Below, one piece after another: positions 7,972 to 54,080 of a DNA stretch of 55,006 nucleotides. Position 1 is the stretch's first letter. Each line of letters begins with the position of its first letter. The translations under genes and the position numbers were made by a program. The notes beneath the pieces are model-generated. The model saw only the letters and a program-made list of their open reading frames with translations, ran no database searches and was not told where the DNA came from. The DNA comes from an uncultured Dehalococcoidales bacterium (lineage in GTDB: Bacteria > Chloroflexota > Dehalococcoidia > Dehalococcoidales > BS750m-G39): the NCBI GenBank assembly GCA_964408935.1, contig CAYPBF010000003.1, forward strand, positions 1 through 55,006, in the 5' to 3' direction.

Positions 7972-7980
7972 ACCTCTCTA

Positions 7981-9379: not shown

Positions 9380-9405
9380 TTTGAGATTCGCCTCCTTCTC
9401 GCTCT

Positions 9406-9630: not shown

Positions 9631-9710
9631 TAGCGCAATTCTTCTTTAGATTTAATACCAGCCTATATTCTTGCACACTATTGAGTTGCGATGCAAATTT
9701 TTTCTTCAGG

Positions 9711-11315: not shown

Positions 11316-11330
11316 GATTGCCTCCTACCT

Positions 11331-12614: not shown

Positions 12615-12626
12615 TGTTATTCCTCC

Positions 12627-22141: not shown

Positions 22142-22195
22142 CCACTAAGCTGGCTTTGATTGCTTTACATAACAATCAAGAAAAGGGGGCACAAA

Positions 22196-23014: not shown

Positions 23015-23290
23015 GCGGTAAAGGCAATGACGGAGAGGAGTAGGGGGAGAGCGGTAGCTTAAAGCGAGTCTGAACGGGTGAGAGCAGACGTTGCCGTCCC
23101 CCGAAGATCACTCCCGAGCCACCAACCGAAAGGTGCTTGGTCACCGAGTAGACCTGGTCGGTAACGTCAACCGTTATCACTGACGGGGGCATTAGGATGT
23201 GCCCTGATAAGAGCCTTCGCTTTGAAAGCGGGGGAAATAGGGTGGTACCGCGGGTAGAATCCCGTCCCTAGGGGACGGGATTTTTTAATA
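23015..23290 (+). promoter_or_regulatory. T-box riboswitch (Ile specifier AUC) with terminator
   Basis: T-box AGGGTGGTACCGCG at 23239-23252, specifier GAAG-ATC-ACTCC (ATC 23107-23109), terminator ATCCCGTCCC..GGGACGGGAT-T6, upstream of ileS. Confidence 0.95.
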
Positions 23291-23301: not shown

Positions 23302-26357
<3,056 letters not shown>

Positions 26358-26361
<4 letters not shown>

Positions 26362-27440: not shown

Positions 27441-27631
27441 AAATAGTCTCCTCGACTTCGGCTTTATCTTTATAACGTGCCAGGCAAGCTATGGTTAGCT
27501 GTCTCTGGTACCATTCCTATAATACTGATTGTAGCACTACGGGTAGGCTGGGGCAAAGTGATTTCTGTCACCTTTCCAAAGGGGCCAAAATCTGTTATAG
27601 TTTACCCCAGTCTTATAAAGGAGGAGGTCGG

Positions 27632-28327
27632 GTGGCCGAGACGGTGATAGCGAAAGCCAGAGGCGAAGGCAGGACGGTGCTGACCGAGGTCGAGTCCAAA
27701 CAACTGCTCGGCCAGGCGGGCATCGACGTGGTTGAGACTAGACTGGCCACTTCCAAGGAAGAAGCTGTTTCCATAAGCGAGGAGCTTGGTTTCCCCGCAG
27801 TACTCAAGATAGCCTCGCCCGATATTATTCACAAGAGTGACGCGGGCGGGGTCAAACTGGGGCTGGAAAGCGCCCGGGCGGTGGGGCAGGCCTACGACGA
27901 TATCATAGCCGCCGCCAAGCAAAAATATCCCAAGGCCAGGATTCTGGGGGTGGCCGTGCAAAAGATGGCGCGCCCTGGCGTCGAGGTTATTATCGGAATG
28001 TCCCAGGACGAACAGTTCGGGCCCGTCCTCATGTTCGGGCTGGGGGGCATACTGGTGGAGGTGCTCAAAGACGTCTCCTTCCGCCTCGTTCCCTTAACCA
28101 AGCGGGACGCCGCTGAGATGGTCAGGGAGATAAAGGGCTACCCCCTACTTGAAGGCTATCGGGGAGGGGAAGTGGTGAAGATAGCCTACCTGGAGAATTT
28201 GCTGCTCAAGGTGTCTGATTTTGTCGAGAAAAATCCTGAGGTCAAAGAGCTTGACCTCAACCCTATTTTTGCCTACAGCGATGGTGCTTTAGCCGTAGAC
28301 GCCAGGGTAATACTGGACTCAAAATGA
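27632..28327 (+). CDS. Acetate/acyl-CoA ligase (ADP-forming) beta subunit (ATP-grasp)
   Basis: LTEVESKQLL, VLKIASPDIIHKSDAGGV, FGPVLMFGLGG.LVEVLKD, ELDLNP; GTG start with SD GGAGGAGG. Confidence 0.92.
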   Translation: MAETVIAKARGEGRTVLTEVESKQLLGQAGIDVVETRLATSKEEAVSISEELGFPAVLKIASPDIIHKSDAGGVKLGLESARAVGQAYDDIIAAAKQKYPKARILGVAVQKMARPGVEVIIGMSQDEQFGPVLMFGLGGILVEVLKDVSFRLVPLTKRDAAEMVREIKGYPLLEGYRGGEVVKIAYLENLLLKVSDFVEKNPEVKELDLNPIFAYSDGALAVDARVILDSK

Positions 28328-29832
28328 ATCTGAAACAGATGTTGGAAGGGGCGGCCAAGCGCTACGCTGACAAGACGGCAGTAGCTATGGGCGAGCGTCG
28401 GCTGTCCTATGCCGAGCTGGACGAGGCCGCAAATCGGGTGGCCAACGCCCTGGTGGGGATGGGGATAACTCAGGGCGACCACGTCGCCCTGCTGCTGGCC
28501 AACAGCCCCGAATTCGTCGCCGTCTATTTCGGGGTGGTCAAAATCGGGGCCATTGCCGTCCTGCTCGACCCCAAGTATAAGCTCACCGAGCTGGTCTCCT
28601 TGTGTGACGACTCCAGGCCCAGGGTCCTGATAACGGAAAGCCCCTGCCTGGAAGAGCTGATGCCTGTTATGGACAAATTCAAGTCCGTGGAACACGTTAT
28701 CGGCCTGACCCCACGCTCGCGAAGAAAAATCGTCACCTACAAAAAGATTATGGAGGAAAGCCCCGCCTCACCAGTCAACATAGAGCCGGCGCCCGAGGCT
28801 ATCGCCCATATCGCCTATAGCTCGGGGCCTTCCTTTAACCCGCGGGGGGTAGTGCTGTCCCACGGGACACTGGTTGAGGAGGCGGATATATCGGGTGACA
28901 GCTTCGAACAAACGGATAGAGACGTCGTTATTCTCTTCGCCCTGCCCATGCACCATGCCTTCGGGCTGGTGGTGGTCATGATGACGGCTATTGCCCAGGG
29001 CAGCACGGTGGTGATGCTTTCGGGGCTTTCCCTGGATAGCCTCTTCGAGCTTATTGAGCGGGAAAAGGCGACCATATTCATGGGGGTGCCTTTCGTTCAC
29101 GGGCTCATCGTGGAGTTCATCGAAGATGGCTGGCTGAAGCACGACCTGAGCTCGCTGCGCATCTGGGGCACGGCTGGGGCCGCCATGCCCCCCAGGATTG
29201 CCGAAAAGGTGAAAGAGCACGTCGGCCTGACCCCGGTCAACTTTTGGGGGATGACCGAATCAGCGGCACAGGTCAGCTGCACCACCCTCGACGGGCGGGG
29301 GGCAGCCAACTCGGTGGGTAGAACTCTGCGCGGCTGGGAGCTGAAGATAGTCGATGACGAGGGACGTGAGCTGCCCACAGGTGAGACGGGCGAGATAATA
29401 GTCAAAGGCCCCATTATGGACGAGTACTACAACAACCCTCAGGTGACAGCCCAGATAATCAAGGACGGCTGGCTCTATACCGGTGATATGGGCTGGCGGG
29501 ACGATTCAGGCTGGCTCTTTTTGGCCGCGGGCCGTAAGAAGGACATGATTATCAGTAAGGGGCAGAATATCTCCCCCAGCGATGTCGAAGAGATAATCAG
29601 CCGTCACCCTAAGGTGGATGAGGTGGCGGTGTTGGGTATCGCTGACGAGTCGAGGGGAGAGACGCCGCGGGCGTTCGTAAAGTTAAAGACGGGCAAAAAG
29701 ACGAGCGAACGGGTGATAAAGCGTTTTTGCCTGAAGCACCTGGCCAACTACAAAGTGCCGCGGGAGGTTGTCTTTATCAAGTCCCTGCCCAGAACCGCCA
29801 ACGGCAAAATCGATAAGGAAAAGTTGAGATGA
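28324..29832 (+). CDS. AMP-dependent acyl-CoA/acyl-ACP ligase-family protein with deviant P-loop
   Basis: LPMHHAFG, WGMTE, GWLYTGD, GRKKDMIISKGQNI, PRTANGKIDK. Confidence 0.85.
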   Translation: MNLKQMLEGAAKRYADKTAVAMGERRLSYAELDEAANRVANALVGMGITQGDHVALLLANSPEFVAVYFGVVKIGAIAVLLDPKYKLTELVSLCDDSRPRVLITESPCLEELMPVMDKFKSVEHVIGLTPRSRRKIVTYKKIMEESPASPVNIEPAPEAIAHIAYSSGPSFNPRGVVLSHGTLVEEADISGDSFEQTDRDVVILFALPMHHAFGLVVVMMTAIAQGSTVVMLSGLSLDSLFELIEREKATIFMGVPFVHGLIVEFIEDGWLKHDLSSLRIWGTAGAAMPPRIAEKVKEHVGLTPVNFWGMTESAAQVSCTTLDGRGAANSVGRTLRGWELKIVDDEGRELPTGETGEIIVKGPIMDEYYNNPQVTAQIIKDGWLYTGDMGWRDDSGWLFLAAGRKKDMIISKGQNISPSDVEEIISRHPKVDEVAVLGIADESRGETPRAFVKLKTGKKTSERVIKRFCLKHLANYKVPREVVFIKSLPRTANGKIDKEKLR

Positions 29833-31070
29833 AACGAAGAGTAGTCATTACCGGAATGGGCCTGCTCACGCCGCTGGGGGTGGGGACAGAGGCGAACTGG
29901 CAGGCGCTTTGCCAGGGGAAATCGGGGGTGGGGCCAGTGACCCATTTCGACGCGGGCGAGTTCCGCACCCAGATTGCTGGTGAGGTAAAGGACTTTGACC
30001 CCCTCGACTTTGTCGACCGCAAGCTGGCCAGGCGTGGCGATCGCTTTATCCACTTCGCCCTGGCGGCGGCGCGGATGGCGCTGGAAGACGCCAAACTTAA
30101 GATTGACGCCTCTAACGACGAGCGGGTGGGGGTTTCGGTGGGTACGGCCATGGGCGGTATCGAGAGCATCGAGAAAAATCATGAGCTTTTGATAAAGGGA
30201 AAGCGGCAGCAGATTTCCCCCTTCTTTGTTCCCAGCTTCCTGGGTAACATGGCTACGGGGCAGGTTGCCATCAGCTTTGGGGCCAAGGGGGCCAATATGT
30301 GTACGGTGACCGCCTGTGCCTCGGGGACGCACGCCATCGGCGACGCCGCCGTTGTTATCCAGCGTGGCGATGTCGACGCCATGATTGCCGGCGGTACCGA
30401 GGCCGCCATCAGGCCGCTGGTCTTTGCCGGACTGGACCCCTTAAAGGTAATGTCGGCCCGCAACGATGCCCCCGAAAGAGCCAGCCGCCCCTTCGATAAA
30501 GAGCGCGACGGCTTTATCATCGGCGAGGGGGCAGGCATGGTCATTTTGGATGAGCTGGAATCGGCCCAAAGGCGGGGGGCCAAGATTTACGGCGAGGTTT
30601 TGGGCTACGGCCTTAACAGCGACGCCTATCACATCACCGCCCCCGACCCCGAGGGCCTGGGCGCCGCCGCCTGCATGAGGCTGGCTTTAGAAGATGCCGG
30701 CATTTCCCCCGACCAGGTGGACTATATAAACGCCCACGGCACCTCGACGACGCTCAACGACCTCTCCGAGACCAGGGCCATCAAGGACGTCTTCGGCGAG
30801 CTGAGCCGTAAGATACCGGTCAGCGCCAACAAATCGATGATGGGGCACATGTGGGCAGGGGCGGGGGTGGCCGAGGCCATCGCCAGCCTGCTCACCATCC
30901 GCGACGGCATTATTCCGCCCACCATCAACTACGAGACGCCCGACCCCGATTGCGACCTCGACTACGTACCCAATGAAGCCCGGAAGGCTAAAGTAAACAT
31001 CGCCCTCTCCAACTCCTTCGGCTTCGGCAGCACCAACGGCTGCCTCATCTTAGGGAAATTTTCCCCTTAA
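29829..31070 (+). CDS. fabF: Beta-ketoacyl-ACP synthase II
   Basis: RRVVITGMG, TACASG, YINAHGTST, KSMMGH, SNSFGFG. Confidence 0.94.
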   Translation: MKRRVVITGMGLLTPLGVGTEANWQALCQGKSGVGPVTHFDAGEFRTQIAGEVKDFDPLDFVDRKLARRGDRFIHFALAAARMALEDAKLKIDASNDERVGVSVGTAMGGIESIEKNHELLIKGKRQQISPFFVPSFLGNMATGQVAISFGAKGANMCTVTACASGTHAIGDAAVVIQRGDVDAMIAGGTEAAIRPLVFAGLDPLKVMSARNDAPERASRPFDKERDGFIIGEGAGMVILDELESAQRRGAKIYGEVLGYGLNSDAYHITAPDPEGLGAAACMRLALEDAGISPDQVDYINAHGTSTTLNDLSETRAIKDVFGELSRKIPVSANKSMMGHMWAGAGVAEAIASLLTIRDGIIPPTINYETPDPDCDLDYVPNEARKAKVNIALSNSFGFGSTNGCLILGKFSP

Positions 31071-32859: not shown

Positions 32860-33717
32860 ATGTCTGGAGTCAGAGTGGTTGCCGATAGCGCGGTCTGTTT
32901 GCCCAAAGAGCTTATAGAGAAGTACAACATCGAGCTGGTGCCGGAGACTATCATCTTTGGTACCACCGTCTATCGTGACGGCGTCGACCTAGTGCCCAGT
33001 GAATTCTACGTCAAGTTGGGGGAGGCCAAGGAGCTGCCGACGACATCGGCTCCCTCCCCTCAGGACTTTATTGATGTCTTCCAGAAGGTGGGTAAAGACG
33101 CCGATTCTATTGCCTGCATCTTGGTAACTGCGGGGTTCAGCCATATGGGTTTGCAGGCGGCTATGACCGCTCGTGAGAGCGTTCCCGAGCCGCCGATAGA
33201 GATTATGGACTCACGGACGGCGTTGGGTGCTTATGGCTTCGTCGTCCTGGCGGCAGCCAAGGCGGCCGCAGCGGGTAAGCCACTGCCCGAGGTTATCCAA
33301 GCCGCCCAAGACGTGCAGAAGCGGGTTACGATGATAGCTACCTTGAATACGATTAAGTATCTGGCCAAAGGAGGGCGCATCGGTAAGGCCGCCCACTGGG
33401 CTGGCACTCTGCTCAGCATTAAGCCCATCATAGAAGTACCTCCTTCCACCGGGGTTTTAGAACCGATAGAGAGGGTCAGAACCAGACGAAAGGCACTGCA
33501 GCGATTGCTAGAGATTATGCAGGAGAGGGTCGGCCAAGGACAGCGGGTACACGCTAGTATAGAACAGGCTAATGTGACCGAAGAAGCACAATGGCTTGAG
33601 TCTCAGCTAATATCGCTTTTTGATTGTGCCGAAATTTATATAAATGATTTCGCCCCCGTGGCTGGAGTCCACTGTGGACCGGGGGTAATTGGGATTTCCT
33701 TTTATACCGGGGACTGA
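32860..33717 (+). CDS. DegV-family fatty-acid-binding protein
   Basis: VVADSA, PTTSAPSP, IMDSRT, YLAKGGRI, HCGPG.IG. Confidence 0.92.
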   Translation: MSGVRVVADSAVCLPKELIEKYNIELVPETIIFGTTVYRDGVDLVPSEFYVKLGEAKELPTTSAPSPQDFIDVFQKVGKDADSIACILVTAGFSHMGLQAAMTARESVPEPPIEIMDSRTALGAYGFVVLAAAKAAAAGKPLPEVIQAAQDVQKRVTMIATLNTIKYLAKGGRIGKAAHWAGTLLSIKPIIEVPPSTGVLEPIERVRTRRKALQRLLEIMQERVGQGQRVHASIEQANVTEEAQWLESQLISLFDCAEIYINDFAPVAGVHCGPGVIGISFYTGD

Positions 33718-43027: not shown

Positions 43028-43101
43028 TGGGGAATCGTCTAGTGGTAGGACAGCGGACTCTGGATCCGTAAGGGAAGGTTCGAATCCTTCTTCCCCAGCC
43101 A
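43028..43101 (+). tRNA. tRNA-Gln(CTG)
   Basis: TGGGGAA...TTCCCCA-G-CCA, anticodon arm GCGGA-CT CTG GA-TCCGT. Confidence 0.96.
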
Positions 43102-43122
43102 TTTTATTTTTTGGAGGCTACT

Positions 43123-43878
43123 ATGAGACCGCTTCAGAGCGATTTATCTATCTACAAGAAGTTTGATTTTAAATATCCGCCTGTAGGCGTCAAGTTCTGC
43201 CTGAGTAAGCCAGAGGGAATCAAGCCGCTGGATAAGTCCATTCCCTTCTGTGAGATGCTCAGGGAGGCGCAGCGAAGGGGCACCGCCTTTTACTTTAGCC
43301 GCGAGAACGAGAGCTGCGTGGGCAAGATAGTATTGGGCATGGAGGACTTTCCACTTTTTGTGGAAGGGGGACTGATCGGGCCCAGGTTCGGCATCTTTCA
43401 GGAGGCGCGGGCTAACAATAAAATCTATCAGTACATACCCCGCTTCGCTCCGGGGCTGGTCAACTATGTCGCCTTCGCCCCACTGGATAAATTGACCTTC
43501 GAGCCCGACCTTCTGGTTCTTACCGCCACCACCAGCCAGGCGGAAATCGTGCTCAGGTCAATGAGCTATTCCACCGGCGAGATTTGGGAGACCAAAGCCA
43601 CGGGGGTACTGGGCTGCGCTTGGCTTTACATCTATCCCTTTCAAAGCGGTAAGGTGAACTATACGGTTACCGGGCTGGCTTTTGGGGCGAAGTCAAAAGA
43701 GGTGTTCGAGGAGGGGTGGATGCTGATATCCATACCCTATAACTGGCTGCCGATTATAACGGCCAACCTTGAGGAGATGGAATGGGTCTTGCCCTCTTAC
43801 ACTGACGGTCGGGAGAAGTTCCTTGAGCGAGAGGAGAAGGTGTTCGAAGAATCCGCCAAAGAGGCGGAGAATGAATAG
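43123..43878 (+). CDS. DUF169-family protein
   Basis: YPPVGVKF, PFCEM, SC.G...LG, EPDLLV, GC.W pattern; ATG 43123 with SD GGAGG. Confidence 0.75.
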   Translation: MRPLQSDLSIYKKFDFKYPPVGVKFCLSKPEGIKPLDKSIPFCEMLREAQRRGTAFYFSRENESCVGKIVLGMEDFPLFVEGGLIGPRFGIFQEARANNKIYQYIPRFAPGLVNYVAFAPLDKLTFEPDLLVLTATTSQAEIVLRSMSYSTGEIWETKATGVLGCAWLYIYPFQSGKVNYTVTGLAFGAKSKEVFEEGWMLISIPYNWLPIITANLEEMEWVLPSYTDGREKFLEREEKVFEESAKEAENE

Positions 43879-43897
43879 CCTGAAACAGGCGGGTATC

Positions 43898-43926
43898 TTG
43901 CCGTTTTAGCCTGTCGCTGTTATAAT
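43898..43926 (+). promoter_or_regulatory. Sigma-70 promoter of tRNA-Glu
   Basis: TTGCCG-17-TATAAT. Confidence 0.75.
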
Positions 43927-43987
43927 AGCCGTGGCTGGCTTTAGAGAAAGCACTATAAGTCTCTGGTTGTAGCCAGCCTTTTTAGGT

Positions 43988-44063
43988 GGCGCATTCGTCT
44001 AGCGGTTAGGACACCGCCCTCTCAAGGCGGAGATCACGGGTTCGAATCCCGTATGCGCTACCA
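43988..44063 (+). tRNA. tRNA-Glu(CTC)
   Basis: GGCGCAT...ATGCGCT-A-CCA, anticodon arm CCGCC-CT CTC AA-GGCGG. Confidence 0.96.
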
Positions 44064-44066
44064 AGC

Positions 44067-44095
44067 TTGACTTTTAAATCTTGCATTTTTATAAT
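44067..44095 (+). promoter_or_regulatory. Sigma-70 promoter of the tRNA-Thr/Tyr cluster
   Basis: TTGACT-17-TATAAT. Confidence 0.8.
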
Positions 44096-44120
44096 GTTCC
44101 AGCTAACCTGTAGCTGGAAT

Positions 44121-44193
44121 GCCCGAGTGGCGCAATGGTAGCGCAACCGACTTGTAATCGGTAGGTTAGCGGGTTCGACTCCCCTCTCGGGCT
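44121..44193 (+). tRNA. tRNA-Thr(TGT), CCA not encoded
   Basis: GCCCGAG...CTCGGGC-T, anticodon arm ACCGA-CT TGT AA-TCGGT. Confidence 0.95.
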
Positions 44194-44206
44194 GAGGTCT
44201 GTGTGG

Positions 44207-44290
44207 GGAGGGGTGCCGGAGTGGTTAATCGGAGCAGACTGTAAATCTGCCGCCCTAAGGGCTACGCAGGTTCGAATCCTGCCCCCTCCA
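44207..44290 (+). tRNA. tRNA-Tyr(GTA), CCA not encoded
   Basis: GGAGGGG...CCCCTCC-A, anticodon arm GCAGA-CT GTA AA-TCTGC, long variable arm. Confidence 0.95.
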
Positions 44291-44350
44291 CTTTAGATAT
44301 AATTTAGGGATTAGAAGTTAGACCACAAAAACTGGTATAATGTTCTGGGT

Positions 44351-44423
44351 GCCCACATAGCTCAGTCGGTAGAGCACGTTCTTGGTAAGAACGGGGTCAC
44401 CAGTTCGAATCTGGTTGTGGGCT
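44351..44423 (+). tRNA. tRNA-Thr(GGT), CCA not encoded
   Basis: GCCCACA...TGTGGGC-T, anticodon arm CGTTC-TT GGT AA-GAACG. Confidence 0.95.
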
Positions 44424-44443: not shown

Positions 44444-45646
44444 ATGGCAAAGCAGAAATTCGAAAGGACTAAGCCCCATTGTAACGTGGGCACCATCGGT
44501 CACGTCGACCATGGTAAGACAACTCTGACCTCGGCGATAACTATGGTCCTGTCTAAGGCAGGGGGGACTGAATATCGCGCCTTCGAGAGTATCGATAATG
44601 CTCCCGAAGAGAAGGCGCGCGGCCTGACCATAGCCATCGCCCATATCGAGTATGAAACCGAGAAGCGCCATTATGCCCATATTGATTGCCCTGGGCACGC
44701 CGATTTCATCAAGAATATGATAACCGGTGCCGCCCAGATGGACGGCGCCATCCTGGTGGTGAGCGCCCCCGACGGGCCTATGCCCCAGACCAGGGAACAC
44801 GTCCTGCTGGCCAGGCAGGTGGAGGTTCCCTACATCGTGGTGGCTCTCAACAAGATTGACGCCCTCGATGACGAAGAGCTGCAGGAGCTGGTGGAGGTGG
44901 AGACCAGAGAGCTGCTGACCAAGTATAAGTTCCCCGGTGACGATTTGCCGGTGATAAGGATGAGCGCCCTAAAAGCCCTGGAGTGTGGCTGCGCCAAGCG
45001 CGAGTGTGAATGGTGCGGCGGCATTTGGAAGCTAATTGATGCCATCGATACCTATATTCCCACCCCGGTAAGGCCCAAAGACCAGCCCTTCCTGATGCCG
45101 GTGGAGGATGTCTTTAGCATTAAGGGTCGCGGCACTGTGCCTACGGGCAGGGTGGAGCGAGGCGTGATTAAGGCCGGCGACGAGGTTGAAATCGTGGGCT
45201 TACACCACGAGCCGCGCAAGACGGTGGCTACCAGCCTAGAGATGTTCCATAAGATTCTGGACGATGCTGAGCCTGGAGACGCTGTTGGTATCCTGCTGCG
45301 AGGCGTGGAACGTGACGACATCGAGCGGGGTATGGTCATCGCCGCCCCCGGTTCGATTAAGCCGCATACCTATGCCGAGGCCGAGGTCTACGTCCTGAGC
45401 AAGGAAGAGGGGGGCCGACATACGCCGTTCTTTAACGGCTATAAGCCCCAATTCTACATAAGGACTACCGACGTTACCGGCACCATCGAGCTGCCCGAAG
45501 GGGTGGAGATGGTTATGCCCGGTGACAACATTAACATGAAGATTAAGCTTATCTACCCGGTGGCTCTGGAGAAGGGCTTACGCTTTGCTATCCGGGAGGG
45601 GGGTAAAACGGTGGGTGCCGGCACTATCAGCCGCATCATTGAGTAG
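44444..45646 (+). CDS. tuf: Elongation factor Tu
   Basis: [42 protein letters not shown]. Confidence 0.99.
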
Positions 45647-45648
45647 AG

Positions 45649-45816
45649 ATGGCGAGGAAGTCTGAAGCCAGGGTTATTATCCATCTTGCCTGCACTGAGT
45701 GCAACGAGAGGACATATACTTCCACGAAGAACAAGAGGAACGACACCCAGCGTCTGGAGCTGAAGAAGTATTGCCCCCGCTGCCGCAGTCATACCCTGCA
45801 CAAGGAGACGAAATAG
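45649..45816 (+). CDS. rpmG: 50S ribosomal protein L33 (Zn-binding C+ form), absent from ORF track
   Basis: [18 protein letters not shown]...[21 protein letters not shown] (55 aa). Confidence 0.96.
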
Positions 45817-45845
45817 GGCGGCATGGAGGCATTTGAGGACGTTTT

Positions 45846-46055
45846 ATGACTCAACGTACTGCTACCAAGCGTTCCCGCTTCCGCTTCATCGGCGATATTA
45901 TCGCCGAGCTGAGGAAGGTGGTCTGGCTCTCCAGGCGAGAGGCGGCTTACCTAACCTTCCTGGTGCTGGTGGTTACCGTGGCCATGGGTATACTGCTGGG
46001 CGTCTTCGACTGGGGTTTTACTCAAATCGTGGAAAAATTCTTTGTGGGCGGATAA
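45846..46055 (+). CDS. secE: Preprotein translocase subunit SecE
   Basis: IAELRKVVW plus one TM; between rpmG and nusG. Confidence 0.93.
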   Translation: MTQRTATKRSRFRFIGDIIAELRKVVWLSRREAAYLTFLVLVVTVAMGILLGVFDWGFTQIVEKFFVGG

Positions 46056-46100
46056 AAGCCCAGCTCTTTTCCAATTCCAATTTGTTTAAACGAGGGGTTT

Positions 46101-46658
46101 TTGGTGGCTGAGAAACAAAACAAGGTGGCGGAAAGTCAAAAAGGGTGGTTCGTGATTCATACCTATTCCGGGTATGAGGAAAGGGTTAAGAAGAATCTTG
46201 AGCAACGCATCAAGTTTATGGACAGCGCTGAAGAGATTGGCGATATTATCATACCCACCGAGGTGGAGATAGAGGTAAAGAACGGGCAGCGGCGGAATGT
46301 GGACAAGAAAATACTGCCCGGTTACATCCTGGTCCAGATGAACATGAGTGACCAGAGCTGGAACATCGTGCGCAACACGCCCGGGGTGACCGGATTTGTC
46401 GGCAGCGGCACCAAGCCGACACCCCTGCTCGAGGACGAGGTTAACCAGATACTGAAGCAGATGGCCGCTGAGGCCCCCAAGGTCAAGGTCGGTTTCCGCA
46501 AAGGGCAGAGCGTGAGGGTGAACAGCGGGCCTTTTATAGATTTTGTTGGCGTGGTGGATGAAATAAGCACCGATAAGGGCAAGGTCAAGGTGCTTCTCTC
46601 GCTTTTCGGACGGGAGACACCGGTTGAGCTTGACTTCTTACAGGTAGAGAAGCTCTAG
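46101..46658 (+). CDS. nusG: Transcription termination/antitermination factor NusG
   Basis: [48 protein letters not shown]. Confidence 0.97.
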
Positions 46659-46666
46659 GAGATAAA

Positions 46667-47092
46667 GTGGCTAAGAAAGTCAAGGCCGTAATTAAGCTGC
46701 AGATTCCCGCAGGCAAGGCCAACCCGGCGCCACCGGTGGGGCCGGCCCTGGGTCAGCACGGGCTTAACATCATGGCCTTCTGTAAACAGTATAACGACCG
46801 CACCTCCAAGCAGGAGGGCTCGATTATTCCGGTGGAGATAACCGTCTACGAAGACCGTTCCTTCACCTTTATTACCAAGACGCCACCGGCTACCGATTTG
46901 CTAAAGAAAGCGTTGGGGGTAGAGAAGGCCTCGGGCGAAGCCGGCCACGAGAGTGCGGGTACGATAACCCGCGCCCAGCTGCGCGAGATTGCCGAGATTA
47001 AGGCTAAAGACCTGAACGCGACCACTATCGAGGGCGCGGAGCGCATCATCGAGGGCACCGCCCGCAGTATGGGCATCGAGGTAGAGAAGTGA
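46667..47092 (+). CDS. rplK: 50S ribosomal protein L11
   Basis: [25 protein letters not shown]. Confidence 0.98.
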
Positions 47093-47802
47093 CCAGACAC
47101 GGCAAAAAATACGCTGAGGCGCTGAAGATGGTGGATAGGGAAAAGACCTATACCCCGGAAGAGGCTATCGGCATCATCAAGAAGGCGGCTTTTACTAAAT
47201 TCGACGAAACGGTGGAGCTTCATCTCCGCATGGGAGTAGACCCGCAGGACGCCACCCAGCAGGTACGTGGTGTGGCTCTCCTGCCCCATGGACTGGGCAA
47301 GCAGGTGCGCGTGCTGGTGTTTGCCCAGGGTGAAGCTGCCAAGGCCGCCCAAGACGCTGGCGCCGAGGCTGTTGGTGCTGACGATATGATTAAGAAAATC
47401 GAGGACGGCTGGCTGGAGTTTGATACCGCTATCGCCACTCCTGATATGATGGGCAAGGTAGGCAAGCTGGGTAAAATCCTGGGGAGGAAGGGGCTGATGC
47501 CCAACCCCAAGTCGGGGACGGTGGTGGCCGCGGAGGACATCCCCCGCGCCATCGAGGAAGCCCGCAAGGGGCGGGTGGAGTTCAAGCTCGACCGCCAGGC
47601 CATCATTCACGTCGTCCTGGGCAAGGTCAGCTTTGAGGAAGAAAAGCTGCTGGCCAATCTGGCAGCGCTCGTCGAGGCGGTGATGAAGGCCAAGCCCAGC
47701 GGGGCCAAGGGCCAGTATGTCAAGACGGCTACTCTGACCACTACCATGGGGCCGGGAGTAAAGCTCGACCTTAAACCCGCCCTGGCTTTAACCTCCAGTT
47801 AA
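47089..47802 (+). CDS. rplA: 50S ribosomal protein L1
   Basis: [33 protein letters not shown]. Confidence 0.98.
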
Positions 47803-47832
47803 TAGTCAATCTTAAGTGAAAGGGGATATCTG

Positions 47833-48984
47833 ATGGCGGACGTTGCTATTGTCGGTGTTGGCCAGACTGCTTTCAGCCGTAGCTGCGGCGTATCGATACG
47901 GGAGCTGGCCTTCGAGGCTTTCCAGGAGGCGCTGGAGGGAGTGGATATCACCAACGCTGATATCGACGCCTCCATTATCTGCTCCGCCCCGGAGTACGAT
48001 AAACAGCGCTCACCGGCCGGCCTGATATCGGAATACCTGGAGCTGACCCCCAAGCCGAGCTTCTACGTGGAGACGGTCTGCTCTTCGAGCAGCACGGGCT
48101 TGAGGGTCGCCTGGTCACTGGTCAAATCGGGGCTGCACAAGATGGTGGCCGTAGTCGGTTTTCAGAAGATGTCCGAGCTTTCCTCCCGCGACGCCGCCGA
48201 GCGTATGGGGCGGGGGGCGGATATCATCTGGGAATCGCCCTTCGGGCTGACCATGCCCGCGGGTTACGCTATGTACGCCCGCGCGCACATGGCTAAGTAC
48301 GGCACCACCGAGGAGCACTTTGCTAAGATACGCGTCAAGAATTCGCACTACGGGGCGACCAATCCCAAGGCGAACTACCGTAAGGAGCTAAGCCTGGAGG
48401 ATATCATGCAATCCGACATGATAACCAGCCCCTTGAAGAAATTCGACTGCTGCGCCAATGCCGACGGCGCTTCCTGCGTTATCGTCGCCCGCGGCGACGT
48501 GGCCAAGAGCATAAGCAAGAAGCCTATCTGGATTGCGGGGCTGGGGGCGGCTACCGATACCATGACCATGGCGGGGCGGAAAGAGCTGACGGGCCTGCAG
48601 TGCGCCCAGGAAGCCGCCAAGCAGGCTTACAAGATGGCGGGTGTCAAGCCGCAGGATATCAATGTCGCTGAGGTGCACGATTGTTTTACTGTCTCCGAGA
48701 TTTTAGCCTACGAAGACCTGGGCTTCGCCAAGCCCGGGGAGGGGGTGGGCCTCATTGAGGATAAAGAGACCTACGTCGACGGCAAGATACCAGTCAACGT
48801 CGATGGCGGCCTGCTCTCTAAAGGGCATCCCATCGGTGCCACCGGAGGCTCCCAGATAAGAACAATTGTTCGGCAGCTGCGGGGCGAGGCCACCGAGGCC
48901 CAGGTGAAGGGCGCCGAGATAGGGCTGGTGCATAACATCGGTGGCATCGGGCAATACGGTAACGTAACCATCTTGAGGAGGTAG
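47833..48984 (+). CDS. Thiolase-family protein 1 (SCP2/archaeal HDCF type)
   Basis: VETVCSSS (Cys), EVHDCF, GGLLSKGHPIGATG. Confidence 0.92.
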   Translation: MADVAIVGVGQTAFSRSCGVSIRELAFEAFQEALEGVDITNADIDASIICSAPEYDKQRSPAGLISEYLELTPKPSFYVETVCSSSSTGLRVAWSLVKSGLHKMVAVVGFQKMSELSSRDAAERMGRGADIIWESPFGLTMPAGYAMYARAHMAKYGTTEEHFAKIRVKNSHYGATNPKANYRKELSLEDIMQSDMITSPLKKFDCCANADGASCVIVARGDVAKSISKKPIWIAGLGAATDTMTMAGRKELTGLQCAQEAAKQAYKMAGVKPQDINVAEVHDCFTVSEILAYEDLGFAKPGEGVGLIEDKETYVDGKIPVNVDGGLLSKGHPIGATGGSQIRTIVRQLRGEATEAQVKGAEIGLVHNIGGIGQYGNVTILRR

Positions 48985-48988
48985 CCTA

Positions 48989-49402
48989 ATGGGCTTTGAG
49001 AACTTCGGCACGGTCAGTTTTACCACGGAGGCCAAAGTGGCCGACTTCATCACCTACCTGGAACAGGGCAAGGTGATGGCCACCCGCTGCCCCAAGTGCG
49101 GGGGAAGCTATTTCCCGCCCAAGGCCGATTGCCCCAGCTGCCTTTCGGGGGAGGTGGAGTGGTTTGAGGTCAAGGGCCAGGGTAAGCTGGCTACCTATAC
49201 CATAGTTAATTACGGGCCGTCGGGCTTTGAGGACGACGCTCCTTACACACTGGCGCTGGGTGAGTTTGAGGGGGGATTACAGATTATGGCCCGCTTGAGC
49301 AAGGATATTGCTCCTGAGGATATCAAGGTGGGTATGAGCCTGGTGGTCGTTCCCTTGAAGCGGCCTGACGGCAGAATCAGCTACGAATTCAAAAAAGGTT
49401 AG
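48989..49402 (+). CDS. Zn-ribbon/OB-fold DUF35 protein 1
   Basis: CPKCG..YFPPKADCPSC, PY.LAL.E. Confidence 0.9.
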   Translation: MGFENFGTVSFTTEAKVADFITYLEQGKVMATRCPKCGGSYFPPKADCPSCLSGEVEWFEVKGQGKLATYTIVNYGPSGFEDDAPYTLALGEFEGGLQIMARLSKDIAPEDIKVGMSLVVVPLKRPDGRISYEFKKG

Positions 49403-49422
49403 GCAAGACAAGGAGGTCAGAC

Positions 49423-50604
49423 ATGGCGGATAGGAAGGTTTGTATCATCGGCGGTGGCATGGATAGATGGGGGGTGAGAGAGGCCAGCTTGGTCGACTTG
49501 GCCCAGGAGGCGGCGCAGGCCTGTTTTGACGATGTGCCGGCGTTGAAGAAAGAGGATATAGACGGCCTTATCTTTGCTTCTTCCTACTGCGGGCGGAGCT
49601 CTTTTCAGGTTAACGCGGCTCCGGTAATCGCCGAGCGCATCGGTCTTCAGCCGACCAGTATCTGTACCAGGGTGGACACCCTCTGTGCCGGCGGCAGTTC
49701 GGGTATCATCATGGCCACGGGGCTGATAAGGTCCGGGATGGCCGATGTGGTCATGGTTGCTGGTGGCGAGAAGCTCTATACGCCACAGCGCTGGGAGACC
49801 TACTACAGCGAGATGGCTTCCATCGACCATGATTGGGATGGAGCCCAGGGGATGGGTTTACCGCCCCCCTTCTTCAGCATGACCGCCCAGGAGCACATGA
49901 AGCGCTACGGGACGACCAAGGAACAGCTTTCGGCGGTCTCAGTCAAGAACCGCCGCAACGGCTCTAACAACCCTAATGCACAGTTCCAGAAGGAGATTTC
50001 TCTGGAAGAGGTGATGGCCGCTAGGCCGATTGTACCGCCGCTGAGCCTTTTTGATTGCACGCCTATTACCGACGGCTGCGCCGCCGTGATGTTGACTCAT
50101 GAAGATAAGGCCAAGGAGCTTTCCGACCGTCCCCTGGTTTACGTCAGGGGAACGGCTCAGGCGAGTCTTCACAGTATGTCTATGAACTGGCCCGGTGAGA
50201 GTTTGGCCGATTGGGTCCACCTGAGGACGGCAGCTAAGAGAGCTTACGAGCAGGCCAGGGTTAAACCCGAAGACATCGACGTCGCCCAGACTCACGATTG
50301 CTTTACCATCTCGGAGATTATCGAGATGGAGGACCTGGGGTTCTGCAAGAAGGGGGAGGGGGGGCCCTTTGTCGAGTCGGGACAGAACGATTTTGGCGGC
50401 AAGATTCCGACCAATACCGACGGCGGGCTGCTTTCCTGTGGCCACCCCTTCGGCGCCACCGGTATTCGCCAGGCACGCGAGATTCTCTTCCAGCTGCAGG
50501 GTAGGGCCATCAGGCAGGTAGATGGCGTCAAGATGGGGTTGACCCATAACCTGAGCGGCCTCAACGTCGAGCATACCATACTTATCTACGGCCGAGAGCC
50601 CTAA
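49423..50604 (+). CDS. Thiolase-family protein 2 (SCP2/archaeal HDCF type)
   Basis: VDTLCAGG (Cys), QTHDCF, GGLLSCGHPFGATG. Confidence 0.92.
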   Translation: MADRKVCIIGGGMDRWGVREASLVDLAQEAAQACFDDVPALKKEDIDGLIFASSYCGRSSFQVNAAPVIAERIGLQPTSICTRVDTLCAGGSSGIIMATGLIRSGMADVVMVAGGEKLYTPQRWETYYSEMASIDHDWDGAQGMGLPPPFFSMTAQEHMKRYGTTKEQLSAVSVKNRRNGSNNPNAQFQKEISLEEVMAARPIVPPLSLFDCTPITDGCAAVMLTHEDKAKELSDRPLVYVRGTAQASLHSMSMNWPGESLADWVHLRTAAKRAYEQARVKPEDIDVAQTHDCFTISEIIEMEDLGFCKKGEGGPFVESGQNDFGGKIPTNTDGGLLSCGHPFGATGIRQAREILFQLQGRAIRQVDGVKMGLTHNLSGLNVEHTILIYGREP

Positions 50605-50635
50605 AAGATAAGATTAACGCTATAAGGGGGAAATT

Positions 50636-51121
50636 ATGCCAGTACCTGGAGTACCGATTTTAGAAGGTTTATATCCATCGACTCTGGACCTTTATCCTTT
50701 TGAGGCCAAGGAATTTAACCGGGTTCACCAGTTCTACGAGAACTTGAGGGCAAACCGCTTTACCACCACCAAGTGTAAGAAATGCGGCACTACGCCTTTC
50801 CCGCCGCGGGTCGTCTGCCCCAAGTGTAATTCGGACGACCTGGAGTGGGTGGACTTGCCCACCAAGGGTAAGGTGCTGCGTTTCACCGAGGAGGTGGCGG
50901 GAGTGCCCCTGGGCTTCGATGCCCCCCTGATTCACGCCCTTATTGAGCTGGAAGACGGGCACAAGCTTATCTGCCGTATCGCTAATTGTAAGGAAGGGGA
51001 ACTTAAAGAGGGTGCGGCCGTACGGCTGTTTGCCTATGAGGTACCACCCATGATTGTGGAGAATAGGGGTGTCATGAAGGAAGTACCCCGAATGTTCTTT
51101 GCTTTTGAACCGGTGAAGTAG
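50636..51121 (+). CDS. Zn-ribbon/OB-fold DUF35 protein 2
   Basis: CKKCG..PFPPRVVCPKC, ALIELEDG. Confidence 0.9.
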   Translation: MPVPGVPILEGLYPSTLDLYPFEAKEFNRVHQFYENLRANRFTTTKCKKCGTTPFPPRVVCPKCNSDDLEWVDLPTKGKVLRFTEEVAGVPLGFDAPLIHALIELEDGHKLICRIANCKEGELKEGAAVRLFAYEVPPMIVENRGVMKEVPRMFFAFEPVK

Positions 51122-51127
51122 TATAAT
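51099..51127 (+). promoter_or_regulatory. Sigma-70 promoter of rplJ-rplL
   Basis: TTGCTT-17-TATAAT; the -35 box lies inside the DUF35-2 CDS. Confidence 0.65.
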
Positions 51128-51149
51128 ACCAAAACAATCGAATAAAACA

Positions 51150-51262
51150 TTTCCGAAGACAGCGGGTGCCCCTTAAGGGGGCTCAAATTCAATGCCTGCC
51201 GAGGATAAAAAGGGTTGAGTCTTTTAAGTCCTTGCGCGGCAGGTGCAAGGACTCATTTTTTA
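51150..51262 (+). promoter_or_regulatory. L10 leader (r-protein autoregulatory RNA) with downstream terminator-like hairpin
   Basis: CCGAAGACAGCGGG...CCTGCCGAGG core; hairpin AGTCCTTGC/GCAAGGACT followed by a T-tract; upstream of rplJ. Confidence 0.88.
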
Positions 51263-51279
51263 TAGGGGGGTGATGAATA

Positions 51280-51807
51280 TTGGCCACTAGGGAAGAGAAG
51301 GCGCAGATTATCGACAGCCTGCAGGAGATTTTCTCCAAGTGCAGCGTCGGTGTGCTGACTGACTATCGGGGTCTGACGGCGGCCGAGATGACTGAGCTGC
51401 GCCGCAAATTGAGAGAAGCCAACGTTGAGTATCGGGTAGTGAAGAACACGCTGGCGCGCTTTGCCGCCGAGAGGGCGGGCAAGGACGAGCTGTTGGGCTT
51501 CTTCGAGGGACCGGTGGCGATTGCCTTCGGCTACGGTGATATTACCGAGCCGCCCAAGGCCTTAGCCGCCTATATCGAGGACGCTAAGGTGGAGATGACG
51601 TTCAAGGGCGGCTTCTTACCCGATAGGATGCTCAGCCTGGAGGAAGTCGAGAGCCTGTCGAAGCTACCGTCAAGGGAGATTCTGCTGGCCAGGGTCGTGG
51701 GCGGAATACAAAGCCCATTGGCGGCTTTGGTCAGCCGTCTTAACGCCCCGATGGCGGGGCTGGTGGGAGTATTGCAAGCTAGGATTAAACAATTGGAGGG
51801 AAAATAA
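51280..51807 (+). CDS. rplJ: 50S ribosomal protein L10
   Basis: [29 protein letters not shown]. Confidence 0.97.
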
Positions 51808-51809: not shown

Positions 51810-52490
51810 ATGGCAGAAGAAGCCAAGGAAAAGAAAGAGGAGAAAGCCGAGGCTGAGGTGAAGGAACCCGAAGCGGAAGAGCCGAAGGCTCAACCCGAAG
51901 CGGAAGAGCCAAAGGCTCAACCCGAAGCGGAAGAGCCAAAGGCTCAACCCGAAGCCAAGGCTGAAGAGAAGCCTGAGGCCAAAGCCGAGGAGAAGCCCGA
52001 AGCTGAGGCGAAACCGGAGGCCAAGGCGGAAGCTAAACCGGAACCGAAGCCAGAGCCTAAACCGGAGCCTAAGGCCGAGGAGAAGAAGGCGCCTAAGAAG
52101 CTATCCAAGGGCGTCGAGGACATTATGAACACCATAAAGAAGATGACCGTCCTCGAGCTTTCCGAGCTGGTAGGCGCTCTTGAAGACGAGTTCGGCGTCA
52201 GTGCTTCGGTGGCGGTGGCGGCTCCGGCCGCGGGTGGGGCGGCAGCAGGCGCCGCGGCTCCGGCGTCCACCGAGGAGCAGACGGAGTTCAGTGTCGTCCT
52301 CAAAGACGTGGGGGCCAACAAGATTAACGTTATCCGTGCCGTCAGGGAGATGACGACGCTGGGCTTGAAGGAAGCCAAGGACTTCGTCGAGAGTGCTCCA
52401 CAGACGGTAAAAGAGGGAGTTACCAAGGACGAAGCCGCTAATATGAAACAAAAGCTTGAGGCGGCGGGCGCTACTGTTGAAGTAAAATAA
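51810..52490 (+). CDS. rplL: 50S ribosomal protein L7/L12 with ~97-aa E/P/K/A-rich N-terminal extension
   Basis: Core [58 protein letters not shown]. Confidence 0.95.
51865..51955 (+). repeat. 27-bp coding tandem repeat, about 3.4 copies (QPEAEEPKA unit)
   Basis: AACCCGAAGCGGAAGAGCC(G/A)AAGGCTC starting at 51865, 51892, 51919, partial copy at 51946. Confidence 0.95.
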
Positions 52491-52505: not shown

Positions 52506-52763
52506 GTGACTTCTGGCGATTATTGGCTACCTATCGCTATCGGTGGCTTTTTCGCCATCGTGGGCATCATCCTGGTTCTTTTGGGCCGGGGGGAGGAGAG
52601 ACATTACTACGACTCCCTGGCTCAGCGCACCGACGCCAGGGAGTTCCTGGAGCGATGGCCGGAGCGCCCACGTTTGGGGGCGCTTAAAATCGGCGGTTGG
52701 ATAACTATTATCGTCGGCGGGATGCTGATAATTATGGGTGGTGCCTTCTGGCTATGGGGCTAG
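52506..52763 (+). CDS. Small two-TM hypothetical membrane protein
   Basis: 85 aa, hydrophobic N and C helices around a charged loop. Confidence 0.7.
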   Translation: MTSGDYWLPIAIGGFFAIVGIILVLLGRGEERHYYDSLAQRTDAREFLERWPERPRLGALKIGGWITIIVGGMLIIMGGAFWLWG

Positions 52764-52844
52764 AGGGACGCGCTACCTATATCGTTTCTCGTCCTTAACT
52801 ATCGAATCTTTTATCCCGACGTGCCTGTGTTCACGGTTTTTTAG

Positions 52845-54080
52845 ATGAACATGATTAGCTCTCAGAGCGGTGGAAAAGGTTATCGCCTTTACGTGCTTAC
52901 TCTTGCGGCACTGTCCTGCACCTTTACTATTGCTATGCAACAGATTTGCATGTCCGTCCTCTTCAAGGAGGTAGCCGAGGACCTGGGCATGAACTTGGTT
53001 CAGATGGGCATAGTCTGGGGTATGCCCAACTTTGCTGGTTTGTTTATTGTCTTCGTCGCTGGCTTGCTTGCCGACCGTTTTGGAGCCCCGCGCGTCATGG
53101 GCATTGCCTGTATCCTGGCCGGCATCTTCGGTGCCCTCAGGGGTACTACCGGTGACTTTTTCAGTCTGGCGCTAGTTACCTTCTTTATGGGACTTTCCAT
53201 CTGGGTTCTACCCAGCAGCGTCTTTAAAACCACCGCCACCTGGTTTTCGGGGCGGAAACTGGTCATCGCCAACGGCGTGGTTTCGGCGGGCATGGGGCTG
53301 GGCTTTACCGTAGGCGCCCTGATTAGTGCCACCGTAATGTCACCATTGCTTGGCGGCTGGGAGAACGTGTTATTCTTGTATGGCGGCATATCGGTCTTCA
53401 TCGGATTGCTCTGGCTGCTCACCGTGAAGGAGCATAGCCAGGTGCACCTGGGAGCGGCACCGACCAAGGTGCCGTTGCGCCAGTCAATCTCACGCGTCTT
53501 TCCTATCAAAACCATCTGGCTTCTCGGCTTGACCCTTTTGGGCTATGGCGCTTGTATTCAGGGGGTGATTGGTTACTTGCCCACCTACCTGCGCAATATC
53601 GGCTGGGCGGCCGCCGGCGCCGACGGAACTGTGGCTGCCTTTAGTGCTCTGAGCACGCTGGGAGCTATTCCGCTGACCTTACTTTCGGCCAAGATCGGCT
53701 TGAGGAAGGCTGTTACCTTCCCGGTGCTGATAGTGGTCATTGTCGGTGTCGCCCTGCTGCCCCTGGTGGGTAGTGCCGCGGTCTGGGTGATAATGATAAT
53801 AATCGGCGTTACCCGTGACGGCTTTATGGCCGTCGTCCTAACCATAAGCACCGAAACCGAGGGGGTGGGGGTAGTCTATGCCGGCACGGCTATGGGGCTG
53901 ACGCAGACAATTATGAGCGTGGGTCCTCTTAGTTCTCCCGCCCTGGGTAACAGCCTGGCCGACCCCGCTAACCCCGCCGCCCCCTATCCCTTCTTCCTCT
54001 GGGCGGCCTTCGGGCTGATAGCATTAATCGCCTTTTGCTTCGTCAAGGAATCGGGCTGGCGGAATAAACCCCAGTTATGA
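52845..54080 (+). CDS. MFS transporter
   Basis: About 12 TM segments; motif A GLLADRFGAPRV. Confidence 0.92.
   Translation: MNMISSQSGGKGYRLYVLTLAALSCTFTIAMQQICMSVLFKEVAEDLGMNLVQMGIVWGMPNFAGLFIVFVAGLLADRFGAPRVMGIACILAGIFGALRGTTGDFFSLALVTFFMGLSIWVLPSSVFKTTATWFSGRKLVIANGVVSAGMGLGFTVGALISATVMSPLLGGWENVLFLYGGISVFIGLLWLLTVKEHSQVHLGAAPTKVPLRQSISRVFPIKTIWLLGLTLLGYGACIQGVIGYLPTYLRNIGWAAAGADGTVAAFSALSTLGAIPLTLLSAKIGLRKAVTFPVLIVVIVGVALLPLVGSAAVWVIMIIIGVTRDGFMAVVLTISTETEGVGVVYAGTAMGLTQTIMSVGPLSSPALGNSLADPANPAAPYPFFLWAAFGLIALIAFCFVKESGWRNKPQL

Follow-up and report, generated by a model that had tools for sequence, protein, structure and literature searches.

The window analysed here is a 55,006-nucleotide stretch of DNA from an uncultured Dehalococcoidales bacterium (contig CAYPBF010000003.1, positions 1 to 55,006). 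In this window, four genes for two thiolases and two DUF35 proteins (thl1, duf35-1, thl2 and duf35-2) lie between the ribosomal protein genes rplA and rplJ, which are adjacent in the ancestral state of bacterial rplKAJL clusters. We consider it probable that these thiolase/DUF35 pairs are long-standing occupants of the boundary between rplKA and rplJL, that they are read with the ribosomal operon and that they act as β-ketothiolases. The proteins are new members of known families. The arrangement of their genes has no description in the literature that we searched on rplA, rplJ and thiolase.

The gene order is tuf-rpmG-secE-nusG-rplK-rplA-thl1-duf35-1-thl2-duf35-2-rplJ-rplL, with all genes on the + strand (Table 1). 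The unit from tuf to rplK (44444..47092) has gaps of 2, 29, 45 and 8 nt, and its order is common to 40 related loci. The start of rplA overlaps the end of rplK by 4 nt. The four inserted genes occupy 47833-51121 (3289 nt). They begin 30 nt after rplA, are separated from each other by 4, 20 and 31 nt, and end 158 nt before rplJ. Promoter-like sites were found by scanning at 43898-43926 and 44067-44095, 5′ of the tRNA genes. The GC content of the insert (0.57–0.60) is similar to that of the adjoining genes, and no direct or inverted repeats were found bracketing it. A preliminary description of this DNA had reported the positions and contents of rplA, the thiolase/DUF35 genes and rplJ, a thl1 start 30 nt past the rplA stop, a host-like composition and no mobile-element scars. 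The open reading frames, the Pfam matches, the GC values and the empty repeat search bear this out. The same description had overlooked the L10 leader, the promoter-like site TTGCTT-17-TATAAT next to it and the old paralogy of the two gene pairs, all of which are treated below.

To place the locus among its relatives, one genome per species was scanned, which gave 80 loci encoding a thl1 relative. The best relatives of thl1 (up to 95% identity) come from metagenome-assembled genomes of Dehalococcoidales or Dehalococcoidia, and more than 120 thl1 clusters fall at 84–93% identity. The adjacency rplA-thl1-duf1, where duf1 stands for duf35-1, was found in 43 of the 80 species-representative loci, most of them labelled Dehalococcoidales, Dehalococcoidia or Chloroflexota. 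In 37 loci the thl1-duf1 pair lies elsewhere in the genome. Linkage is kept down to 74–76% EF-Tu identity with the window (L061 and L070). The identity of thl1 correlates with that of tuf, nusG, rplK and rplA, averaged over the four genes (Spearman 0.93, n = 40), which indicates vertical inheritance. An adjacency kept across such deep divergence is what operon membership predicts. Synteny, which the preliminary description had suggested as a means to date the insertion, thus points to an old arrangement, present in 43 of 80 loci and traceable down to 74% EF-Tu identity.

Three forms can be distinguished among the linked loci. Form A, the window type, has thl1-duf1-thl2-duf2 and was found in 14 linked loci and in L081. 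In form B (12 loci), thl1-duf1 is accompanied by a fusion of 3-hydroxy-3-methylglutaryl-CoA (HMG-CoA) synthase with DUF35, written HMGCS::DUF35, and by a different thiolase. The fusion has 468 amino acids and scores 254.3 bits with NF003274 (cutoff 244); the thiolase scores 548.7 with NF004810 (cutoff 403). Form C (13 loci) has thl1-duf1 alone. Four more linked contigs end too early for classification. The thl1 tree obtained by neighbour-joining intermingles forms A and B among closely related loci (for example, L011 and L013 with L012 and L014, or L020 with L018), and clades with an unlinked pair are nested among linked ones. Within the window, thl1 and thl2 share 38% identity, and duf35-1 and duf35-2 share 36%. 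These low identities and the interleaved forms lead us to an old thl1-duf1 core with a swappable second module. Judged by their sequences, the two gene pairs are old paralogues and not a single inserted unit. The conserved core is thl1-duf1, long resident at this place on the evidence of these loci, and the second module is exchangeable. The idea of one inserted four-gene cassette, as first put forward, therefore has to give way to this core and a variable partner, which is thl2-duf2, HMGCS::DUF35 with a thiolase, or nothing.

The four-gene set of form B is also present in L063 and L064, there at a distance from ribosomal genes, and genes similar to this set lie near thl1-duf1 in the Bathyarchaeia locus L069. 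The closest homologues outside Chloroflexota are the thl1-duf1 pairs of Bathyarchaeia (L066-L073), with thl1 67–71% identical to that of the window. They point to a transfer of the pair between Archaea and Chloroflexota of the same sediments.

The preliminary description had allowed for a misassembled junction between rplA and thl1. Unitigs from independent sediment metagenomes cover this junction. Run X1 gave unitigs 47501-47846 and 47817-48189 with 0 mismatches, and a unitig of run X3 (47499-47868) crosses the junction. Together with the 43 shared loci, the independent unitigs exclude misassembly and recent insertion. The probability that the junction is an assembly chimera, or that the insert is a recent, horizontally acquired mobile element, is thus close to nil. 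Bathyarchaeia thl1 at about 70% identity means that the gene family crossed domains at some point, but the unitigs, the shared loci, the host-like composition, the lack of flanking repeats and a thl1 divergence that tracks the ribosomal genes all speak against such an origin.

The spacer between rplA and thl1 has the sequence TAGTCAATCTTAAGTGAAAGGGGATATCTG, with the ribosome-binding site AAAGGGG at its 3′ end. In an alignment of 26 sequences (the window and 25 loci), conservation was confined to the ribosome-binding site GAAAGGGGA and the start codon, and the ribosome-binding site GAAAGGGGAT is the only conserved element of the spacer itself. A scan of the window, with a promoter consensus that may not fit Chloroflexota promoters, placed neither a terminator-like nor a promoter-like site in the spacer or close to it. 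The RNA fold of the junction was no better than that of shuffled sequence (z = +0.38), and the spacer of the window contains no -10-like hexamer. One promoter-like match inside rplA (47450-47477) was rejected, as it overlies a conserved protein motif and many relatives have GAAAAT or a similar hexamer where the window has TAAAAT. Most close relatives, that is most loci of forms A and B, have spacers of 20–37 nt. Because the genes are on the same strand, the gaps are short and the spacer has neither a terminator fold nor a conserved promoter, co-transcription of thl1 with rplKA is plausible in the lineage of the window. The earlier statement that no terminator or promoter is visible after rplA agrees with the empty scan, the fold and the relatives, in which no promoter is conserved.

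The conservation of thl1 was compared with that of its neighbours in 21 loci with EF-Tu at 84–93% identity. The median identities were 86.5% for tuf, 84.2% for nusG, 83.3% for thl1, 80.3% for rplK, 74.7% for rplA, 69.9% for duf1 and 63.0% for rplJ. By this measure thl1 is nearly as slow-evolving as EF-Tu. Such a metabolic enzyme is under very strong constraint, which fits an abundant, indispensable protein.

A search of RNA runs found none that contains the window; for L020, a relative of form A, it gave four metatranscriptome runs. In one of them, X22, unitigs were 85–99% identical to L020 nusG, rplK, rplA, thl1, duf1 and the beginning of thl2. In X22, thl1 had a word depth of 880–3870, compared with 1000–1580 for rplA and 140–520 for rplK. 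Thus, one metatranscriptome of relatives shows abundant thl1-like RNA in situ. The conservation of thl1 and its depth in X22 are both consistent with high expression. The only unitig that joined rplA and thl1 had them on opposite strands and was taken as an inverted assembly chimera. A second X22 unitig jumps back 1004 nt from thl1 to rplK and was also read as a chimera; both concern L020 940-1974. Loose-end sequences of the RNA unitigs matched none of the related loci well enough to be placed.

At the downstream boundary, the ribosomal protein L10 leader (RF00557) is matched over its full length, with 60.2 bits against a gathering threshold of 44, and ends 13 nt 5′ of rplJ. It contains a terminator-like hairpin (51227-51253) followed by a T-run (fold z = -2.35). 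An L10 leader follows the insert in 10 of 11 relatives tested, spanning all three forms. The only tested locus without a match is L025, where the gap between duf1 and rplJ is about 65 nt (7564-7630). The site TTGCTT-17-TATAAT overlaps the duf35-2 stop codon. Its TATAAT (51122-51127) comes directly after the stop codon, and the leader starts 8 nt downstream. This site scored under the -35 threshold of the scan and was read from the sequence. A -10-like box lies at the equivalent position relative to the leader in most relatives of all three forms, whichever gene precedes it; L039 has TGTGCTATAAT and L070 has TTGACT-17-TATAAT. It appears from this that rplJL keeps its own promoter and autoregulatory leader, with the insert upstream of both. 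In the Rfam search, the L10 leader was the only ribosomal-protein leader in the whole window, and the 8 nt between nusG and rplK leave no room for a separate rplK leader.

Both thiolases have Thiolase_N and Thiolase_C/Thiolase_C_1 matches above Pfam gathering (155.2, 49.7 and 46.5 bits for thl1; 144.4, 78.2 and 36.7 bits for thl2). With NF004720 (cutoff 420), thl1 is above at 444.6 and thl2 is below at 358.3. Full-length alignments to SCP2-type thiolases were obtained for both, the top matches being 7yvy and the Methanothermococcus thermolithotrophicus thiolase 6esq_A. The pattern of SCP2-thiolases is HDCF with a catalytic Cys, and a second, nucleophilic Cys (PMC12329534). In the related aldolases Sal and Ltp2, Gly stands where the thiolases have their nucleophile, and YDCY or YDHF replaces HDCF (PMC12329534). 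For thl1, VETVCSSS contains the predicted nucleophilic Cys, AEVHDCF the acid/base Cys and GHPIGATG the His. The corresponding motifs of thl2 are VDTLCAGGS, AQTHDCF and GHPFGATG. In domains and motifs, both proteins are therefore SCP2-type (SCP-x) thiolases, and they are predicted to be catalytically competent.

The two DUF35 proteins match zf-ChsH2 and OB_ChsH2_C above cutoff, with zinc-ribbon Cys pairs CPKC...CPSC in duf35-1 and CKKC...CPKC in duf35-2. The best PDB match of both is 6esq_E (E = 1.9e-17 for duf35-1 and 6.2e-10 for duf35-2). We presume that duf35-1 is the scaffold subunit of thl1 and duf35-2 the partner of thl2.

Homologues of thl2-duf2 (70–73% identity) form tight operons with genes for 3-hydroxyacyl-CoA dehydrogenase and enoyl-CoA hydratase. 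Unlinked thl1-duf1 homologues, including those of Bathyarchaeia at about 70% identity, adjoin genes for 3-hydroxyacyl-CoA dehydrogenase, crotonase, short-chain dehydrogenase, medium-chain dehydrogenase or acyl-CoA dehydrogenase. Because unlinked relatives adjoin 3-hydroxyacyl-CoA dehydrogenase and crotonase genes, thl1 and thl2 with their DUF35 proteins are most likely heteromeric β-ketothiolases for acetoacetyl-CoA or other short 3-oxoacyl-CoA.

In the explanation that we favour, the four genes would form a 3′ extension of the tuf-rpmG-secE-nusG-rplKA transcript in the lineage of the window, each with a separate ribosome-binding site. Transcription would continue into the L10 leader and its attenuator, and rplJL would also have its own promoter. 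The enzymes would cleave or form acetoacetyl-CoA (2 acetyl-CoA <-> acetoacetyl-CoA) or other short 3-oxoacyl-CoA, which would be the thiolase reaction of a route of the β-oxidation or crotonyl-CoA type, with the remaining genes of that route at other places in the genome. Through their place in the operon, the thiolases would be expressed steadily and in a ribosome-like manner. The preliminary description went further on two points. Growth-rate-dependent expression of the thiolases may follow from their position. That they belong to a core carbon pathway is a reasonable guess, which draws on the conservation of thl1 and on one metatranscriptome.

Several observations weigh against this explanation. 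Spacers of 58–98 nt separate rplA and thl1 in L021, L024 and most form C loci. In L035 and L039, a perfect 13-bp hairpin followed by GUUUUU lies between the two genes, at about 5935-5975 (fold z = -3.8 and -4.3). This hairpin is likely a terminator or attenuator that is not present in the lineage of the window. Together with the longer spacers, it means that tight coupling of rplA and thl1 is not general for the arrangement. On the RNA side, no unitig cleanly spans the rplA-thl1 junction of L020, where a gap remains at 1818-1853. Unitig depth is also a poor measure of expression, and conserved thl1 recruits RNA from unlinked genomes as well. The codon usage of thl1 is not like that of ribosomal protein genes, with a log-likelihood ratio of -0.060 per codon that places it in the lower third of the window genes; codon bias is weak genome-wide and sets the ribosomal genes only slightly apart from the other genes of the window, so we took this rank as uninformative and not as a sign of low expression. 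As for function, substrate and direction come solely from gene context in other genomes, and the partner genes hbd and crt are not in the 55-kb window.

Some of these observations can be read in another way. The pairs may owe their position to historical accident, with no bearing on regulation. A promoter of their own, located in the spacer or towards the 3′ end of rplA, would then drive most of the transcription of the thiolases, whose expression would not depend on the ribosomal operon. We regard this as unlikely, yet it has to be taken seriously. Internal promoters are common in ribosomal clusters, and the scan consensus might miss those of Chloroflexota. The spacers of L002-L009 hold AATAAT, which resembles a -10 box. 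Where a terminator-like hairpin follows rplA, thl1 needs read-through or its own start. The codon usage of thl1 and the location of the pair elsewhere in 37 of 80 loci would also fit. An own promoter is harder to reconcile with the short spacers of most close relatives, in which the ribosome-binding site alone is conserved, and with the lack of a -10-like hexamer in that of the window. The sole promoter-like match in rplA sits on a protein motif and varies in its first base among relatives, and an adjacency that persists at EF-Tu identities as low as 74% speaks for selection on the gene order.

Other alternatives concern the function of the pairs. They could supply acetoacetyl-CoA for an archaeal-type mevalonate pathway, or for a Sulfolobus-like fatty-acid synthase that depends on CoA and is independent of acyl carrier protein, so that the synthesis of lipid precursors would be coupled to ribosome synthesis. 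We think this improbable. In its favour, the M. thermolithotrophicus complex is among the best solved-structure matches, and an HMG-CoA synthase::DUF35 fusion with a thiolase follows thl1-duf1 in 12 loci. In Sulfolobus acidocaldarius, a thiolase/DUF35 pair serves as the nucleus of a fatty-acid synthase to which a reductase and a MaoC dehydratase also belong (bioRxiv 10.1101/2024.07.05.601840). In L025, a MaoC-like dehydratase gene (5463-5906) lies between rplA and thl1, and medium-chain and short-chain dehydrogenase genes lie beside unlinked copies. Other findings argue against it. HMG-CoA synthase was found nowhere in the 55 kb, where tblastn of the L014 HMGCS::DUF35 matched only with its DUF35 part, at duf35-2. 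The archaeal acetoacetyl-CoA thiolase equivalog AcCoTHIOL_METTL gave 344 bits for thl1 and 316 for thl2 against a cutoff of 600. A FabF-type synthase gene (29829-31070) indicates that classical fatty-acid synthesis is probably present. The HMG-CoA synthase of form B brings its own thiolase, and thl1 is not obviously its partner. Dehalococcoidia have also been reported to use methylerythritol phosphate (MEP) as their sole isoprenoid route (PMC6107057), which counts against a mevalonate pathway. The HMGCS::DUF35 fusion of form B sits oddly with that report.

It is highly improbable that the DUF35 proteins, or the whole complex, have a role in translation like that of Trf, a Sulfolobus DUF35 protein (PDB 6htj) that releases aIF2 from mRNA (PMC6996347). 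Such a role would account for the location among ribosomal genes, and Trf is matched by duf35-1 (E = 2.2e-6) and duf35-2 (E = 1.8e-8). Both DUF35 proteins match the 6esq_E scaffold better than Trf, however, and their genes are tightly paired with thiolases whose catalytic motifs are intact. Unlinked homologues stand in operons of the β-oxidation type, and aIF2 is an archaeal factor.

A wider version of the β-ketothiolase explanation is also conceivable, though we hold it to be rather unlikely. By analogy with E. coli rpmF-plsX-fab, the boundary between rplA and rplJ might serve in this clade as a conserved expression slot that couples acetyl-CoA condensation to ribosome synthesis. The second module would be swapped between thiolase/DUF35 and an archaeal-type HMGCS::DUF35 with a thiolase, and the direction would be biosynthetic, towards lipid precursors. 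Acyl or lipid genes with ribosomal units have precedents in E. coli rpmF-plsX-fabHDG and in Mycobacterium tuberculosis, where the lipid genes mmaA/fabD2 separate rplKA and rplJL. The intervening genes of M. tuberculosis are mostly on the opposite strand, and both precedents differ from the window in the genes and in their position.

The window was compared with known systems of similar composition. The thiolase/HMG-CoA synthase/DUF35 complex of M. thermolithotrophicus (PDB 6ESQ, 6ET9) likewise has an SCP2-type thiolase gene beside a gene for a DUF35 scaffold. Among solved structures, this complex ranks first or second as a match for each of the four inserted gene products, and the Cys, HDCF and His align. 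In contrast to that complex, the window cassette has no HMG-CoA synthase, a bacterial host and a location in a ribosomal operon; some relatives have an HMGCS::DUF35 fusion in the same slot. The S. acidocaldarius complex likewise has a thiolase/DUF35 pair without HMG-CoA synthase, with several pairs per genome. Its partner enzyme types (short-chain dehydrogenase, MaoC dehydratase and medium-chain dehydrogenase) are neighbours in related loci, whereas the window cassette has no partner genes. Homologues of Saci_1120 have been reported as restricted to archaea (bioRxiv 10.1101/2024.07.05.601840).

Among bacteria, the benzoylsuccinyl-CoA thiolase BbsAB of anaerobic toluene degradation (PDB 7PXP) is also a heteromeric thiolase with an integrated zinc-finger DUF35 subunit. 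The window proteins fail the equivalogs for BbsB (NF053628, 188.5 and 180.4 bits vs 750) and BbsA (NF053627, 31.2 and 36.7 bits vs 250), and no bbs pathway genes are nearby. In hbd-crt-thl operons of short-chain β-oxidation or butyrate metabolism, homologues of both window pairs adjoin 3-hydroxyacyl-CoA dehydrogenase and crotonase genes, whereas the pairs of the window stand apart from dehydrogenase and hydratase genes, among ribosomal genes. Compared with the bacterial rplKA and rplJL(-rpoBC) units, the window keeps nusG-rplK-rplA, the L10 leader with an attenuator-like hairpin, and rplJ-rplL. It differs in the 3.3 kb of metabolic genes between rplA and the leader, in the 8 nt between nusG and rplK and in having no rpoBC after rplL. 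Literature searches on PDB 7YVY and on metatranscriptomics of Dehalococcoidia thiolases found nothing relevant.

Table 1. Features of the tuf-rplL region of the window, and loci of form B in relatives.
Feature	Position	Strand	Basis or remark
Five tRNA genes	43028-44423	+	directly 5′ of tuf
tuf	44444-45646	+	open reading frame
rpmG	45649-45816	+	open reading frame
secE	45846-46055	+	open reading frame
nusG	46101-46658	+	open reading frame
rplK	46667-47092	+	open reading frame
rplA, ribosomal protein L1, 237 aa	47089-47802	+	Pfam Ribosomal_L1, 217.9 bits, 1.3e-64
rplA-thl1 spacer, 30 nt	47803-47832	+	between rplA TAA stop (47800-47802) and thl1 start
thl1, SCP2-type thiolase, 383 aa	47833-48984	+	Pfam Thiolase_C_1 (155 bits) and Thiolase_N
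duf35-1 (duf1), zinc-ribbon and OB-fold, 137 aa	48989-49402	+	Pfam zf-ChsH2 and OB_ChsH2_C
thl2, SCP2-type thiolase, 393 aa	49423-50604	+	Pfam
duf35-2 (duf2), zinc-ribbon and OB-fold, 161 aa	50636-51121	+	Pfam zf-ChsH2 and OB_ChsH2_C
Promoter-like site TTGCTT-17-TATAAT, candidate for rplJL	51099-51127	+	read from sequence
Ribosomal protein L10 leader	51135-51267	+	Rfam RF00557
rplJ	51280-51807	+	Pfam
rplL	51810-52490	+	Pfam
Form B-type loci in relatives	e.g. L014 7584-10197		L012, L014-L016, L018, L019, L021, L024, L030, L034, L045, L049

The product of rplL, L7/L12, has an N-terminal extension of about 100 amino acids, rich in Lys, Glu, Ala and Pro and encoded in the 5′ part of the gene (51810-52110), which contains three 27-nt tandem repeats (51865-51955). 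The rplL frame is open from just past the rplJ stop in most of the 34 related loci checked. The extension begins with M(T/P)EEEAKGKK in closer relatives and is 28–158 amino acids long, with only 6 in L046. In place of rpoB and rpoC, rplL is followed by genes for an 85-amino-acid two-helix membrane protein and an MFS transporter (52506-54080). Among related loci long enough to include this region, most have the membrane protein and about half have the transporter.

Other acyl-CoA genes in the window encode two parts of an ADP-forming acyl-CoA synthetase (CoA-binding/ligase, 14783-16234; ATP-grasp, 27491-28327), an AMP-binding ligase in the 27491-31070 region that also holds the FabF-type ketoacyl synthase, and a DegV fatty-acid-binding protein (32860-33717). 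A molybdenum hydroxylase set (large, 2Fe-2S and FAD subunits with CoxG) lies on the - strand at 5210-14084; the adjoining two FAD_binding_4 proteins and a CCG/4Fe-4S protein resemble a glycolate-oxidase-type set. Glutamine synthetase, NAD synthase and an NrpR-type regulator (Pfam NRD1_2 and HTH_12) are encoded together at 727-4887. NrpR is best known as a nitrogen repressor of methanogenic archaea. Two DUF169 genes were found at 22160-22969 and 43111-43878, the latter between tRNA-Gln and tRNA-Glu, just 5′ of the tRNA-tuf cluster. A T-box leader (23018-23272, 103.8 bits) lies directly 5′ of the gene for a 1019-amino-acid class I aminoacyl-tRNA synthetase (23302-26361).

Many metagenomes from sediments, groundwater and cold seeps contain Dehalococcoidales-like bacteria, and the close relatives identified here have been recovered solely as metagenome-assembled genomes. 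With its EF-Tu-like conservation, its location in a translation operon and its abundant metatranscriptome RNA, thl1 is a good candidate for a central acetyl-CoA enzyme of these organisms. If the wider version of the explanation is true, HMG-CoA would be synthesized by some Dehalococcoidia, which might even have a mevalonate route, at odds with the report that they rely on MEP alone. Should the arrangement have no more than positional meaning, it would be a gene-order curiosity. On the explanation that we favour, the locus would provide a clean natural example of a ribosomal operon that has taken in metabolic genes. Lineages without the terminator, with the terminator and with the pair elsewhere could then be compared for the effect of operon position on expression.

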